A stretch of 64,000 nucleotides of DNA from Candidatus Limnocylindrales bacterium (GTDB lineage: Bacteria > Chloroflexota > Limnocylindria > Limnocylindrales > CSP1-4): positions 17,912-81,911 of the forward strand of contig JBEKMM010000009.1 of NCBI GenBank assembly GCA_050008515.1, read 5' to 3'. A program made the translations under genes and the position numbers. This document shows, piece after piece, positions 4,956 to 26,301 of the stretch. Positions within the stretch are counted from its first letter, which is position 1, and every line of letters begins with the position of its first letter. A model generated the notes under the pieces. That model was not told the origin of the DNA. It ran no database searches and saw only the letters and a list, made by a program, of their open reading frames with translations.

Positions 4956-5753
4956 TCAGGGGGCCGGCCGCGGCTCCTGGTCATCGCCATCGAGCCATGC
5001 CGGGCCCGGCTCGTCCTCGACCTGGCGCCACCACGAGCGCTGCCGGTTCAGCTCCACATCGCGCCGCCTGCGTCGTTCAGCCAATCCGGGGAAGAGCCCT
5101 TCGAACAGCGCTCGATACTGGTACGGGTCGGCCAGTCCGAACAGGATCGCGACCAGGGCGACGAAGACGAACTGATTCGCGAACGCCAGGACGGCCACGA
5201 ACGCGCTGAACGCGATGCTGGCCGCGAGGGCGAGGAGCTCACCGCGTTGGCCGAAGGCGAGCCGCAGGAGATGCATGACGGCGCTGCCGCCGTCGAGCCG
5301 GGTGATCGGCAGCAGGTTGAAGATCCCCCAGCCCAGGTTGACGAAAGTCCAGGTACCGAGGGCGGAACGCACATCCGCAGCCTGGCCGGCAACCGCCCCC
5401 TCGAGCGCCAGGCCGATGGCGCCGAGAACCAGCCCCACGCCCGGTCCCGCGAGCGAGACGACCAGCCACCGTCGATCGGGAAGCCTGACCGCGGCCTCCT
5501 GGTCGTTGGGGATGGTGACCCCGCCGAGACCCCAGAACGCGATCGTCGATTCGAGGCCGTAGCGTCTGAACGCCACGGCATGGCCCAGCTCGTGGACCAG
5601 GATGGCGAACGTGCCGAAGACCACCCAGACGACCAGCTCGATGCTGGACAGGTCGGAGATGTATCCGAGGAGCAGCAGGAAGATAGGGAAGGCGACGCCC
5701 ATCGATATCGGGAACCCGAGAACCCGCACGGTGATCGCCATCGACTTGCCCAT
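4956..5753 (-). CDS. Site-2 protease (peptidase M50)
   Basis: HELGH, VSLAGP and FNLLPITRLDGG motifs; AGGAG RBS. Confidence 0.9.
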   Translation of the reverse strand: MGKSMAITVRVLGFPISMGVAFPIFLLLLGYISDLSSIELVVWVVFGTFAILVHELGHAVAFRRYGLESTIAFWGLGGVTIPNDQEAAVRLPDRRWLVVSLAGPGVGLVLGAIGLALEGAVAGQAADVRSALGTWTFVNLGWGIFNLLPITRLDGGSAVMHLLRLAFGQRGELLALAASIAFSAFVAVLAFANQFVFVALVAILFGLADPYQYRALFEGLFPGLAERRRRRDVELNRQRSWWRQVEDEPGPAWLDGDDQEPRPAP

Positions 5754-5955
5754 TGCGCTCCTCTAGTGCGCCGCCTGATCGAGCCTCGATGTCAGCCGGC
5801 GGTCGAACGAGGGTAACCCGCAATTCGAAAGAGTGGCGGGCGATGCCACTGAGTTGCCGGCAGCGAGCCGTTCCCGCGGCCTCGCCCCTCGGGGCTGCTT
5901 GACCCGTGCGCGACCCTGCCGCCGCCGCGACGTCAGCATGGGCGCGCGGCATTCC

Positions 5956-6144
5956 GGTCAGATTCAAACCCCGGTAGCACGAGTCCGAGACGACAAGCCT
6001 TCTTGACCGGCCTGGCGCGTCCCGGTGTGCTCGGAGAGCGGCTACCCACGCTCAGACACGCCGCAGATTCGGCGGCCACGTCCAATCCGGGCCGCCTCCG
6101 CCGCCAATCGTTTGGTCGCGTGCTACCCCGGTTTGCAGATGACC
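5956..6144. repeat. Imperfect 26-bp inverted repeat enclosing 189 bp, just 3' of the tRNA
   Basis: GGTCAGATTCAAACCCCGGTAGCACG (5956-5981) versus CGTGCTACCCCGGTTTGCAGATGACC (6119-6144); 21 of 26 positions complementary. Confidence 0.55.
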
Positions 6145-6166
6145 AGACTGCGCCGTCGGGAGGGGC

Positions 6167-6243
6167 TGGTAGGGGAGGGAGGACTCGAACCTCCAACCGA
6201 GGCTGTATAAGAGCCGTGCTCTGACCAATTGAGCTACTCCCCC
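6167..6243 (-). tRNA. tRNA-Ile, anticodon UAU
   Basis: Minus strand reads GGGGGAG TA GCTC AATTGGTCA GAGC A CGGCT CT-TAT-AC AGCCT CGGTT GGAGG TTCGAGT CCTCC CTCCCCT A CCA. This is a 77-nt cloverleaf with encoded CCA and A73. A TACGAT -10-like hexamer lies 10 nt upstream. Confidence 0.92.
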
Positions 6244-6464
6244 GCCGGCCGCGATCGTACACCCCTCGGGGCGACGATGGCCGCCCGTAGCCCGGATCCA
6301 CCGGTCACGCGCAGCAGATCGCCGGGCCGACGAGCGCAGGCCAAGGCGGCGACGAGCATCGGAGCGAGCGGACCTGGAGGTGCGTGAGCGAGAAGCGCAG
6401 GAGCCAACGCCGGAATGCGCCGGCTGACCGGATGAGATGCAAGCGGCGATCGGCGGATACGGGC

Positions 6465-7709
6465 TCAGTCCACGCCGCCGCGGAGGACCTGGATCGCGGG
6501 CCGGTGCGGGATCGTCTCCGGAGTGTGGTCCGCGACCAGCGCCACACCGTCGCGGAAGCGGCGCAGCTCGTGGTCCGTGTTGAAGAAGCCGACGCTGATG
6601 CGGATGGCGTCGAGCGGCGGGATCGTGCGGGCGATGGCCAGCGTCCGCTTCGACAGCTCGCCGAGCGCGGGGCCGGGCTTCCAGCCGGCGATGCGGAAGG
6701 TCACGAGCCCGGCCATGTGATCGCGTGGGGTTATGACCTCCACGCCGGGGACCTCCGCCAGCATCGCGGCCGCCTCGCCGGCCAGGCGAGCGACGCGCTC
6801 GTGGATCCACGCCAAGCCGACGAACATCGAAAGCCAGGCGGCGCTTCGGGCCAGGCCCAGAACGGACGGCTGGTGGTAGCCGGCGATCTCGAAGCGTCGG
6901 GCGTCCGGCCAGAGCTTGCCCTCGACGGCCAGGTCGATCGATTCGAAGCTGCCGTACCCGGCGAAGGTGAGGCGCGGCCGATCCAGGACCGAGGGAGCGC
7001 AGTAGAGCGCGCCGACCCCCTCGGGGCCGAGCAGCCACTTCTGGCCCGGCACGGCGTAGAAGTCCGCGCCCACCTCCTCGACCGAGACCGGGATCGCGCC
7101 GACCGCCTGCGCGCCGTCCACGGCGACGAGCGCACCGCGCGAGTGGGCCAGCTCGACGATCTCGCGGATCGGGAGGCGGGCGCCGGTGGCCCAGGAGACG
7201 TGCGAGATGGAGACGAGCCGGGTCTCCGGCGTGATCGCCCGATCCAGGGCCGCGAGCACTTCGGCCGGATCGCCGCCGGTGCCGATATCGGCGATCGCCA
7301 GATCCACGCCCTGGCGGTCGCGCAGCGCCCACAGCGGCCCCAGCGCGCCGGCGTGCTCGAGCGAGGTCGTGACCACCCTGTCGCCCGCCTGCCAGTCGAT
7401 GGCCCACGTCGCGACGTTCATGCCCTCGGTCGTGGCATGGGTCAACGCCATCCGGCGCGGCTCGGTCGCGAGCACCGCCGCCACGGCCGCGCGGGCCTCG
7501 TTCATGCGCTCGGCCGAGTCCTTCCAGTAGTCCATGTCGGCCCGGCCGGTGCGCAGCTCGATCCCCTCCAGCTCGGCCATCGCCCGGACCGTCTCGCGCG
7601 GCAGCGGCCCGCACGAGCCCGTGTTCAGGTAGATGCCCGCGGCCGTCGCCGGCAGAGCCTCGCGGATCGCCGGCAGCTTGTCGTCGTCGGGGAGGAATGG
7701 GCCCACCAT
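6465..7709 (-). CDS. Aminotransferase class V PLP enzyme (C-S lyase-like: CefD/EgtE/C-DES group)
   Basis: IYLNTGSCGP, VDGAQAVG, PGQKWLLGPEG (PLP lysine) and IRISVGFFN. It lacks the SufS/IscS persulfide Cys loop. Confidence 0.85.
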   Translation of the reverse strand: MVGPFLPDDDKLPAIREALPATAAGIYLNTGSCGPLPRETVRAMAELEGIELRTGRADMDYWKDSAERMNEARAAVAAVLATEPRRMALTHATTEGMNVATWAIDWQAGDRVVTTSLEHAGALGPLWALRDRQGVDLAIADIGTGGDPAEVLAALDRAITPETRLVSISHVSWATGARLPIREIVELAHSRGALVAVDGAQAVGAIPVSVEEVGADFYAVPGQKWLLGPEGVGALYCAPSVLDRPRLTFAGYGSFESIDLAVEGKLWPDARRFEIAGYHQPSVLGLARSAAWLSMFVGLAWIHERVARLAGEAAAMLAEVPGVEVITPRDHMAGLVTFRIAGWKPGPALGELSKRTLAIARTIPPLDAIRISVGFFNTDHELRRFRDGVALVADHTPETIPHRPAIQVLRGGVD

Positions 7710-23361: not shown

Positions 23362-23988
23362 ATGAGCGAGAGACGCGGACGCAAGTCGGCCGTGGCCACC
23401 GGGCGCGGCGATGACGGGACCACGGGGCTCCTCTTCGGCGGCCCGCGCATCTCCAAGGACGACCCTCGGACGGAGGCCTACGGGGCCATCGATGAGGCGA
23501 TAGCAGCGCTCGGGCTGGCTCGCGCGGAACTCGCCGTCAAGGCCCAGTCGGGAACGCTGCCGCGCGTCATCGCCGGGCTGCCGGAGGTGATCCTTCGCGT
23601 CCAGCGCGAGCTCTTCGTGGTCGGCGCCGAGCTGGCGACCGCCCCCGGCGCGACGGACCGCCAGCGCCCCGGCGAGACGCGAGTGACCGCGGAGATGGTC
23701 GGCGGCCTCGACGAGCTGCTCGACGAAACGGAGGAGAACGTCACGCTGCCCAGGGAGTTCGTCGTCCCGGGCGAGACGCGTCTCTCGGCCGCGCTCGAGC
23801 TGGCGCGAACGATCGTGAGGCGGGCGGAGCGGCGAGCCGTCGCGGTGCGCAGGGCCGAGCCACTCCCCAACGACCAGCTCGTGCCGTACCTGAACCGCCT
23901 CGCGGACCTGCTCTGGATCCTTGCCCGAGCCGCCGAACAGGGCGAGTCGCGCGCGGCGACGCCATCGAAGGCGGCCCCGGAGCGCTGA
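23362..23988 (+). CDS. pduO: PduO-type ATP:cob(I)alamin adenosyltransferase
   Basis: TGRGDDGTTGL, AYGAIDE, ARTIVRRAER and YLNRLADLL. Confidence 0.9.
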   Translation: MSERRGRKSAVATGRGDDGTTGLLFGGPRISKDDPRTEAYGAIDEAIAALGLARAELAVKAQSGTLPRVIAGLPEVILRVQRELFVVGAELATAPGATDRQRPGETRVTAEMVGGLDELLDETEENVTLPREFVVPGETRLSAALELARTIVRRAERRAVAVRRAEPLPNDQLVPYLNRLADLLWILARAAEQGESRAATPSKAAPER

Positions 23989-24981: not shown

Positions 24982-26301
24982 GTGACCGAACGCTCCGGAC
25001 CGTCGATCCGCCCCGCCGTGGCAGCCCTTGCGGCCGCCCTGCTCGTCGCCGCGATGGCGGCGTGCGGCAGCTCCAACCCGACCCAACCGCCGGCGCCCAG
25101 CCAGACGGGAGTCGCGAGCACGGCCAGTCTCGGCGCGCCGACCGCGGTAACCGAGACGCCGACCGCGCTTCCGACCGGGCCATTGGCTTCCCCCGCCGAC
25201 ATCTATCCCGTCCCAACCCTGAGACTGCCCCCGCCGGCGGGCGCGCCCGCCGCGACCCTCAACCCGACGACCACAGCCATCCTGGACAAGACGATCAAGA
25301 GCGTTCGTTCGCAGGGCGCCTTTCCGGGCATCGCCGTGAGCATCGTCTTCCCCGACGGCTCGACGTGGACGGGCGCCTCCGGCTCGGCGGTCCTGTCGAG
25401 TCGAAGACCGGTCACGGCCGACACGCTCTTCTCCGTCGGCAGCATCAGCAAGACGTTCGTGGCGGCCCTCACCCTGCGGCTCGCCGAGCGGGGCACGATC
25501 GGCCTGGACGACGCGCTCTCCAAGTACCTGCCCACGTACCCCAACGCGAGCCACATCACCCTGCGCCAGCTGCTCAACCACCGCAGCGGCATCCGTGACG
25601 TCTTCGACTCGGCGAGCATGGACAAGGCCATCCTGTCGAACCCGAGCAAGCTCTGGACGGTGGATGAAGTCCTGGCCCGAATCGGCAAGCCATATTTCGC
25701 CCCGGGGCGCAACTACCACTACTCGAACACGAACTACATCCTGCTGAGCGTCGCGATCGAGAAGGCGACGGGCCAGACCCTCGCCTCGCTCGTTCGCTCG
25801 GAGTTCCTCGATCCGCTCGGAATGACGAGCACCTGGTTCCAGCCCGAGGAGCAGGTCGCCAGCGCGGCTTTCGCCCATGGCTACATGGGCCCGTCGAGCA
25901 AGCCGCGCGACATATCCGCGGGCCAGAAGATGCTGCCCTACAACTCCGAGGCGACGGTGGCCGGGTCGGCCGGCGGGTTCGTCTCGACTGCGCCCGACCT
26001 GGCGCGCTGGGCCTCCGCCCTATACGGCGGCGCCGTGCTGGACCAGGCCGCCCTGGCGTCGATGATCGACGTCTCGGCCACGCTGCCGTACGGGCCCAGC
26101 TACCCGTACGGGTTCGGCTTCGAGCGGACGGCGATCGCCAGGCGCATCGCCTGGGGCCACCGGGGCCATCTCGACGGCTTCTGGTCGGCGATGTGGTACC
26201 TGCCGGACTCCCGCATCACGATCGTCGTCCTGACCAACGACGAATGGACGAACGTCCAGTCGGTGACGGCGCAGTTCGTGCAGGCCCTGCTCGGGAAGTA
26301 G
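24982..26301 (+). CDS. Serine hydrolase (AmpC/beta-lactamase family) lipoprotein
   Basis: Lipobox MAAC, Pro/Thr linker, SISK (SxxK), LLNHRSG, YSNTNY and GHRG. Confidence 0.9.
   Translation: MTERSGPSIRPAVAALAAALLVAAMAACGSSNPTQPPAPSQTGVASTASLGAPTAVTETPTALPTGPLASPADIYPVPTLRLPPPAGAPAATLNPTTTAILDKTIKSVRSQGAFPGIAVSIVFPDGSTWTGASGSAVLSSRRPVTADTLFSVGSISKTFVAALTLRLAERGTIGLDDALSKYLPTYPNASHITLRQLLNHRSGIRDVFDSASMDKAILSNPSKLWTVDEVLARIGKPYFAPGRNYHYSNTNYILLSVAIEKATGQTLASLVRSEFLDPLGMTSTWFQPEEQVASAAFAHGYMGPSSKPRDISAGQKMLPYNSEATVAGSAGGFVSTAPDLARWASALYGGAVLDQAALASMIDVSATLPYGPSYPYGFGFERTAIARRIAWGHRGHLDGFWSAMWYLPDSRITIVVLTNDEWTNVQSVTAQFVQALLGK

Follow-up and report, generated by a model that had tools for sequence, protein, structure and literature searches.

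A gene-encoded tRNA-Ile(UAU) as the probable sole AUA decoder in the TilS-less order Candidatus Limnocylindrales (Chloroflexota)

A stretch of 64,000 nucleotides from a Candidatus Limnocylindrales bacterium (assembly GCA_050008515.1, contig JBEKMM010000009.1, positions 17,912 to 81,911; hereafter the window) was analyzed with regard to its single tRNA gene, which encodes an isoleucine tRNA with the anticodon UAU. Comparative analysis indicates that this tRNA-Ile(UAU) is very likely the organism's only decoder of AUA codons, after the ancestral loss of both the tRNA modification enzyme TilS and its substrate tRNA-Ile2(CAU), and that it is presumably charged by a type-2 isoleucyl-tRNA synthetase (IleRS). 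The genome that contains the window (G000), a closed chromosome of its clade (G445) and 56 further genomes of the order all yielded neither tilS nor tRNA-Ile2(CAU), in line with the original prediction of a TilS-independent route of AUA decoding. The enzyme is generally regarded as essential and almost universal among bacteria.

ARAGORN detected one tRNA in the window; it lies on the minus strand at 6167-6243 and was typed as tRNA-Ile (anticodon tat). The Rfam model RF00005 aligned along its entire length to 6170-6243(-), scoring 66.9 bits (gathering score 29, E 2.2e-12). Both calls, together with a direct reading of the sequence, bore out the complete 77-nt cloverleaf proposed originally and every structural detail listed for it, including the anticodon loop C-U-UAU-A-C, A73, A15/U48, the encoded CCA, the acceptor stem GGGGGAG/CUCCCCU with its G1:U72, the C27/U43 mismatch and the C at position 38. 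The marks of an isoleucine-type tRNA body (A73, G3-C70 and A37) were all present. The features of the locus are as follows:

6167-6243, minus strand: tRNA-Ile(UAU) gene, 77 nt (ARAGORN and Rfam RF00005; 90-100% identity in 24/25 genus genomes)
6167-6169, minus strand: encoded CCA (sequence reading)
6205, minus strand: C at tRNA position 38 (sequence reading and clade comparison)
6207-6209, minus strand: anticodon TAT (UAU), which pairs with the AUA codon (ARAGORN and sequence reading)
6254-6259, minus strand: -10-like hexamer TACGAT, a probable promoter element (upstream conservation across 24 genus loci, compared by eye)

The order is taken here as families f1 and f2, whose record titles read Candidatus Limnocylindrales, while f3 to f5 are sister families of the same class. 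As judged from its pattern of conservation, the gene was shown to be real and under purifying selection. BLAST searches with the window tRNA retrieved full-length copies from all the genus genomes except G011, and ARAGORN labeled these 24 copies, as well as two from family f2, as tRNA-Ile(tat), so that relatives carry TAT and not CAT, the latter being the finding that the original prediction had named as refuting. Pairing is kept in 98% of stem cells across 33 distinct sequences of the order, and compensatory double changes were seen at 9 of the 21 pairs: at all five in the anticodon stem, at three in the T stem and at one in the acceptor stem. Two identical copies were found in G058 (C1:192851 and C2:2849) and in G024 (C23:24320 and C4:225268), and one copy in the other genomes. 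Moreover, a species-genome collection scanned with a clade-specific pattern yielded at least 120 loci; among the matches listed, 119 of 120 were tRNA-Ile(tat), and the record titles were nearly all Chloroflexota, Chloroflexia or Candidatus Limnocylindrales/Limnocylindria, including Candidatus Limnocylindrus and Candidatus Aquidulcis. The clade-specific tRNA was also seen in metagenome-assembled genomes titled Paceibacterota, Zixiibacteriota and Verrucomicrobiia (L227, L231 and L240), which are most likely mis-binned Limnocylindrales contigs.

The public sequencing runs that contain the window are metagenomes of peat, wetland and bog. Of the sampled words, 69-92% were present in four DNA runs and 7%, approximately the share of the tRNA in the stretch, in six RNA-library runs. 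The read check proposed for the anticodon returned TAT in the contigs of all four runs inspected (two DNA and two RNA runs, from four studies), with no variant letter at 6207-6209. Among the RNA-run contigs, one spanned 6167-6264 and another 6166-6246, both without difference, and the stretch 5700-6141, covered by the DNA runs, was uncovered, a weak hint that the tRNA region is transcribed.

Upstream of the gene, the sole conserved block in the 24 genus loci was GGTGTACGATC (6253-6263), which ends approximately 10 nt before the mature 5' end. The -10-like hexamer noticed beforehand was recovered there and is conserved in the genus (TACGAT in 22/24 loci, TACCAT in 2/24), with TAGCAT, TACAAT, TAGAAT or TAGGAT at the same distance in other genera. 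A scan of 5800-6600 for consensus sigma-70 promoters and terminators returned no full consensus site. Since it belongs to the only conserved upstream block, the hexamer is probably a real promoter element of the tRNA gene, a reading based on conservation. The neighbours of the gene in the window encode a class-V aminotransferase and an M50 peptidase, and the gene context differs between genera. Two nearby stretches, 6289-6451 (flanked by the tRNA promoter and the aminotransferase gene) and 6577-6636, were covered by many short high-depth contigs in DNA and RNA runs, with a summed depth of up to ~300 against a depth of ~6 in the adjacent DNA, and may represent a community-wide repeat or a small RNA.

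The G000 assembly (3.35 Mb, 68.9% GC, 71 contigs, 94.4% complete) contained 47 tRNAs according to ARAGORN, only two of them with a CAU anticodon. The first is the initiator, in which C1 is mismatched with A72 and the anticodon stem has three G-C pairs, and the second is an elongator tRNA-Met with acceptor stem GGCGGAG/CUCCGCU and C3-G70. In the survey of Silva et al. 2006, C3-G70 marks Met and fMet tRNAs, and G3/C70, often together with C4-G69 and C5-G68, marks tRNA-Ile(CAU). In five of five TilS-positive sister genomes, the C3-G70 elongator was accompanied by a CAU tRNA whose acceptor stem reads GGGCCC, the Ile2 signature; in G000 and in five of five near-complete f1/f2 genomes examined, the CAU tRNAs were only of the C3-G70 Met type. 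Two further ARAGORN calls in G000 had odd lengths for their type, namely a 94-nt tRNA-Glu(ttc) (C2:36669-36762) and a 71-nt tRNA-Leu(cag) (C70:176676-176746), and the program reported no tmRNA in the whole assembly.

The search for TilS was based on TIGR02432 (TilS N-terminal, cut-off 93.6 bits), a model that scored over its cut-off in 10/10 bacterial control genomes. In G000 it gave only a 23.6-bit match, below the cut-off and limited to the first 67 model positions, and the corresponding open reading frame (ORF) was rejected as a TilS candidate, as it encodes a GMP synthase (GATase and GMP_synt_C domains). Three TilS proteins of the sister lineages, compared with the whole of G000 by tblastn, retrieved nothing below E 0.1 besides an artefact over the tRNA itself. 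The closed 2.43-Mb chromosome G445, which belongs to the clade and carries tRNA-Ile(tat), gave no TilS match at all. Its 50 tRNAs, the same set by Rfam and by ARAGORN, included one Ile(GAU), one Ile(UAU) and two with CAU, namely the initiator and the GGCGGAG elongator, with no third CAU tRNA. This result removes the caveat attached to draft assemblies.

The distribution of both traits was then compared across the class. TilS scored over the cut-off in none of 41 genomes made up of G000 and its nearest relatives (24 species of the genus and 16 from the second family). A wider sample of the class, with 151 genomes of at least 85% completeness, gave 0/50 in f1, 0/7 in f2 and 89/94 in f3 to f5, where the five exceptions comprised three genomes with no match, one with a weak match only and one with the gene in two pieces. 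A UAU tRNA pattern that left position 38 free, and whose reversed control matched nothing, was found in 43/50 f1, 6/7 f2 and 0/94 f3 to f5 genomes. In the seven f1 genomes that the pattern missed, BLAST and ARAGORN located a tRNA-Ile(tat) of 78 nt whose D stem is variant, which brings f1 to 50/50 and the order to 56/57 for the UAU tRNA against 0/57 for TilS, with no UAU tRNA in the 94 sisters. The loss of TilS hence belongs to one order and not to the whole class.

At the phylum level (301 genomes, at least 90% complete), TilS was present in 275, and the 26 genomes without it were all 17 of f1, all three of f2 and six others. Three of these six have a UAU tRNA (G242 and G266 of family f35, and G355 of family f56), with A38 and an acceptor stem different from that of the order, and their IleRS also contains PF19302, a type-2 enzyme. 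Because members of both families lack TilS and have the UAU tRNA, the exchange of TilS for this tRNA appears to have taken place at least two more times in Chloroflexota, in what look like independent repeats. The original prediction had taken a UAU tRNA combined with TilS loss to be rare; the combination is less rare than assumed. Four of the 275 TilS-positive genomes also matched the UAU pattern, so that coexistence of both systems occurs in the phylum as well. Three genomes, G204 (f6), G373 (f59, 1.0 Mb, 99% complete) and G388 (f22), had neither TilS nor a UAU tRNA, even with a loose pattern; either their assemblies are incomplete at these genes or they deal with AUA by a third route. The tallies include genomes flagged as unpublished, all of them in TilS-positive rows (G112, G093, G153 and G129 in the class sample; G203, G412, G323, G320 and G404 in the phylum TilS tally; G412 in the UAU tally); without them, the figures are 85/90 for the class sisters, 270/296 for the phylum and 6/280 for the other UAU matches. 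One TilS-positive genome of family f11 (G273, locus L080) has a tRNA-Ile(UAU) that falls on a long branch inside the Limnocylindrales UAU clade of the tRNA tree, which could mean that the tRNA was transferred horizontally or that the long branch is misplaced.

The site of the loss could be located. In family f4, the elongator tRNA-Met gene is directly followed by tilS (PF01171, 354 aa) and then by ftsH. On contig C8 of G000, the tRNA-Met gene (25839-25913, minus strand) is followed by ftsH (Peptidase_M41, AAA and FtsH_ext domains) with no tilS between them, and the same junction was seen in 7/7 other f1/f2 loci (8/8 with G000). Because tRNA-Met adjoins ftsH where the sisters hold tilS, and no remnant was detected by tblastn, tilS was cleanly excised between these two genes in the ancestor of the order. 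The arrangement with tilS in place was recorded at L103, L104 and L109 (f4) and at L110 (f3). The TilS of f4 is short (354 aa) and has no TilS_C domain, that of f3 is long and includes it, and in f3 the initiator tRNA gene lies 110 nt upstream of the elongator.

AUA remains in regular use in G000. Among 2076 high-GC3 ORFs (that is, high in third-position GC), covering 2.41 of the 3.35 Mb, 1251 ATA codons were counted (1.56 per 1000 codons and 3.6% of isoleucine codons), distributed over 855 ORFs (41%). The three ATA codons pointed out beforehand in the window, at 23500, 24784 and 44807, are all in frame in the ORF list. Depletion of AUA as a route to TilS loss was considered and found to be unsupported, as rough counts per 1000 were 1.86 in f1, 0.60 in f2, 1.74 in f4 and 0.58 in f3. 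The meaning of the codon was approached by aligning G000 ORFs to the sequence surrounding the tRNA in six f1 genomes (360 kb; 64 genes with orthologue-like matches; for AUA, 45 sites and 73 aligned pairs). The residues found opposite each G000 codon were:

ATA: Ile 33%, Leu 23%, Val 19%, Met 8% (8.2%)
ATC: Ile 59%, Leu 11%, Val 19%, Met 1.2%
ATG: Ile 5%, Leu 16%, Val 6%, Met 60%

In these alignments AUA behaves as an isoleucine-like codon located at less conserved sites.

With regard to charging, an IleRS was considered able to accept a UAU anticodon when it has Arg in place of Trp905 (type 1) or is a type-2 enzyme. The G000 IleRS (~1113 aa) contains tRNA-synt_1, Anticodon_1 and DUF5915 (PF19302) and has no zinc finger, corresponding to a type-2 C-terminus, and its best match in the PDB was a 1032-aa type-2 enzyme (8c8w/8c8v). 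Since the TilS-positive sisters have the same long type-2 IleRS (43-53% identity), this enzyme type predates the loss of TilS. A eukaryote-type IleRS is likewise reported for tilS-less Bifidobacterium and Neorickettsia by Taniguchi et al. 2013 (PMC3575796). The residues that surround base 34 in the IleRS2 of P. megaterium (Q961, R964, K965 and L969; PMC13752280) align to Q, R, K and V in G000. The first three are conserved in the sisters as well, save that f3 has N in place of Q. Nearby differences from the sister clade (EGD vs EGL, R-A vs H-x) were discarded as not diagnostic, as the TilS-positive P. megaterium shares them.

Taken together, these data suggest a sequence of events in which the ancestor of f1 and f2 would have deleted tilS from between the elongator tRNA-Met gene and ftsH, lost tRNA-Ile2(CAU), and come to rely on a UAU anticodon encoded in the gene itself. 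A small promoter of its own would drive transcription of the tRNA, which the type-2 (archaeal/eukaryote-like) IleRS of the lineage presumably charges with isoleucine and which would pair with AUA through U34. We infer both charging by IleRS rather than by methionyl-tRNA synthetase (MetRS) and the chemical state of U34. As a guess, misreading of AUG might be held down by competition from tRNA-Met, by ribosome properties like those of Mycoplasma mobile and by the loop formed by C32 and a pyrimidine at position 38.

Among the unusual positions of the tRNA, the original prediction had singled out the weakened anticodon stem and C38 as possible tuning features and G1:U72 as a further peculiarity. 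Only the pyrimidine at position 38 is a peculiarity of this tRNA across the whole clade. A38 was found in 0/50 pattern matches of the order (C or U, with one G), and all seven 78-nt variant copies of f1 have C38; the tRNA-Ile(GAU) of the same genomes has A38, as do 6/7 UAU tRNAs found elsewhere among the families of Chloroflexota (only that of G412 departs, combining C38 with U32). The weakened stem did not stand as a clade feature, as the 27:43 mismatch occurs in 13/119 listed copies and most of the clade has a normal pair, making C27/U43 a quirk of the window's genus. G1:U72 is indeed clade-wide (112 of the 119 listed copies, with acceptor stem GGGGGAG in 114 and encoded CCA in 114), but the elongator tRNA-Met of the same genomes carries it as well. 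The 32-38 pair tunes ribosome binding and accuracy in E. coli tRNAs, and the C32/Y38 loop (Y, pyrimidine) is therefore a reasonable candidate for a decoding-tuning feature.

Several observations weigh against tRNA-Ile(UAU) being the sole and isoleucine-specific reader of AUA. The G000 assembly lacks tRNA-Ile(GAU), tRNA-Ala(UGC) and 16S rRNA, and therefore its rRNA operon is unassembled; a draft in this state (94% complete) cannot by itself prove the absence of TilS, so that the case for absence rests on the relatives and on G445. The UAU tRNA was not detected by BLAST or with a loose pattern in G011 (the genus member mentioned above, 88% complete) or in G029 (f2, 91%), both of which we tentatively read as assembly gaps. 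The known base-34 pocket of IleRS2 showed no change specific to the TilS-less clade, and no adaptation of the enzyme was evident. Methionine lies opposite AUA more often than opposite ATC (8.2% vs 1.2%), which could hint at some ambiguity, and this excess may stem from one-step mutation between ATA and ATG. Finally, the RNA-run evidence consists of assembled contigs of a tRNA that is identical in several species, and the expression it suggests is not tied to this organism.

The alternative that fares best leaves tRNA-Ile(UAU) as the AUA reader and changes the way in which AUG is avoided: an enzyme replacing TilS would modify U34 or the loop, and this modification, rather than the ribosome or features of the tRNA body, would discriminate AUA from AUG. 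We regard it as a serious possibility, short of an even one. Eukaryotes modify the UAU anticodon of tRNA-Ile through a pseudouridine route (PMC11912914) and mutant haloarchaeal tRNAs carry 5-cyanomethyl-U (PMC3895270), and the clade-wide C32/Y38 loop could serve as a recognition element. On the other hand, PMC3575796 describes an unmodified anticodon with discrimination by the ribosome in M. mobile, the one bacterium studied, and no candidate enzyme gene travels with the tRNA, whose aminotransferase and M50 peptidase neighbours belong to a variable context.

Charging with methionine or another amino acid, with AUA reassigned or ambiguous as in the many mitochondria where AUA means Met, is very unlikely. 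The resemblance of the tRNA to elongator tRNA-Met, its closest paralogue, with acceptor stems differing only at 3:70, and the excess of Met opposite AUA would fit such a scenario. Nevertheless, AUA aligns with Ile four times as often as with Met (24 vs 6 pairs, compared with 41 vs 487 for ATG), the G3-C70 pair marks Ile and not Met among the CAU tRNAs covered by Silva et al. 2006, and the CAU anticodon on which MetRS depends (PMC12514573) is gone in tRNA-Ile(UAU).

Even less probable is that TilS and tRNA-Ile2(CAU) are present and were missed, being divergent or lost to draft assembly, with the UAU tRNA as a redundant second AUA reader. The gaps of the G000 draft leave some room for it, and redundancy does exist in the phylum, both in the four TilS-positive genomes with the UAU pattern and in Ktedonobacter, listed in Table S1 of Taniguchi et al. 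2013. Yet the contrast between the order (0/57) and sisters of similar quality (89/94), the closed G445 chromosome with no TilS and only two CAU tRNAs, the empty tilS slot at 8/8 loci with no tblastn remnant, and a model that passes its cut-off in every bacterial control all argue the opposite. An error of sequencing or assembly behind the anticodon, or decay of the gene into a pseudogene, can be dismissed, given TAT in 24/25 genus genomes, 56/57 order genomes and 119/120 further listed species loci, no variant in four runs, and stems that pair with compensatory changes.

The tRNA that very likely took over AUA decoding has a less clear ancestry. In G000 and G445 its closest paralogue is the elongator tRNA-Met (0.77-0.78 identity), and group mean identities of the UAU tRNAs were 0.72-0.755 to elongator tRNA-Met and 0.68 both to the sister tRNA-Ile2(CAU) and to tRNA-Ile(GAU); consensus identities were 55/73, 46/73 and 47/74, respectively. 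The acceptor stems GGGGGAG/CUCCCCU (UAU) and GGCGGAG/CUCCGCU (Met) differ only at pair 3:70. In a maximum-likelihood tree, the UAU tRNAs of the order formed one clade (96/91) in a polytomy with elongator tRNA-Met, apart from a cluster of tRNA-Ile2(CAU) and tRNA-Ile(GAU), while approximately unbiased (AU) tests rejected none of the three origins (Ile2, p 0.20; elongator Met, p 0.33; Ile-GAU, p 0.22). No ORF was shared (within 1.5 kb on either side, E <= 1e-8) between the f1/f2 UAU loci and the f3/f4 tRNA-Ile2(CAU) loci, and therefore an origin in place by C-to-T change is neither shown nor excluded. Tentatively, and with greater odds of being wrong than right, the AUA reader may be, instead of a mutated tRNA-Ile2(CAU), a duplicated elongator tRNA-Met whose identity was switched by C34 to U and by 3:70 C-G to G-C, with Y38 facing C32 fixed later as a brake on AUG reading. 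If so, a natural switch of tRNA identity from Met to Ile would have freed the lineage from its need for a modification enzyme held to be 'essential'.

TilS has been lost without genome reduction in an order that is abundant, free-living and rich in GC, and a TilS-keeping sister clade in the same class, together with a known deletion site, offers a clean natural comparison. This comparison bears on how U34 avoids AUG, on whether a type-2 IleRS accepts UAU unadapted, and on what makes TilS dispensable. In practical terms, the absence of tilS from these genomes should not be put down to incomplete assembly, and for this order TilS is ill suited as a 'universal' marker or as an antibiotic target.

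TilS-less bacteria with a tRNA-Ile(UAU) are already on record, namely M. mobile, M. haemofelis, M. suis, Bifidobacterium and Neorickettsia, and bacteria with both systems include a member of the Chloroflexi, Ktedonobacter racemifer (PMC3575796, Table S1). Lactobacillus casei is another bacterium in which a UAU tRNA acts as a redundant second AUA reader. TAT-anticodon tRNA genes were listed for 19 bacterial species in tRNADB-CE 2014, and a UAU-anticodon tRNA-Ile was still described as 'rare cases' in PMC13752280 (Oct 2026). A literature search, whose coverage stopped short of subscription journals, returned no publication that deals with tRNA-Ile(UAU) or the loss of TilS in Limnocylindria.

As described in PMC3575796, M. 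mobile resembles the order in having no tilS, only two CAU tRNAs and a gene-encoded tRNA-Ile(UAU) as sole AUA reader, and it is the only organism for which an unmodified U34 and ribosomal discrimination have been shown. It differs in its 0.78-Mb, AT-rich, host-associated genome and in its type-1 IleRS adapted by a single Arg (R865), whereas the window genome has 69% GC and a type-2 IleRS, and the Limnocylindrales are free-living (record titles naming peat, soil and freshwater), with genomes of 1-4 Mb and a trait that defines the whole order. Nearest in enzyme make-up are Bifidobacterium and Neorickettsia, which, according to the same source, lost TilS on a type-2 IleRS background while their close relatives keep it. 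They belong to a different phylum, and in the present case both the deletion site and a TilS-keeping sister clade are identified; the likeness is drawn from gene content, and the tRNA of the window's order has a pyrimidine at 38 and G1:U72. K. racemifer shares with the order its phylum and a tRNA-Ile gene with a TAT anticodon, but it and other two-system bacteria keep tilS and a third CAU tRNA, which makes their UAU tRNA redundant, and the order has neither. The closest experimental parallel is the Bacillus subtilis suppressor of a tilS deletion (tRNA-Ile1 G34U; Fabret 2011 via PMC3575796; Kohrer 2014, PMC3919564), in which a recruited UAU tRNA replaces TilS. That replacement arose in the laboratory from tRNA-Ile(GAU), whereas the tRNA of the Limnocylindrales is natural and ancient, least like tRNA-Ile(GAU) and most like the elongator tRNA-Met.

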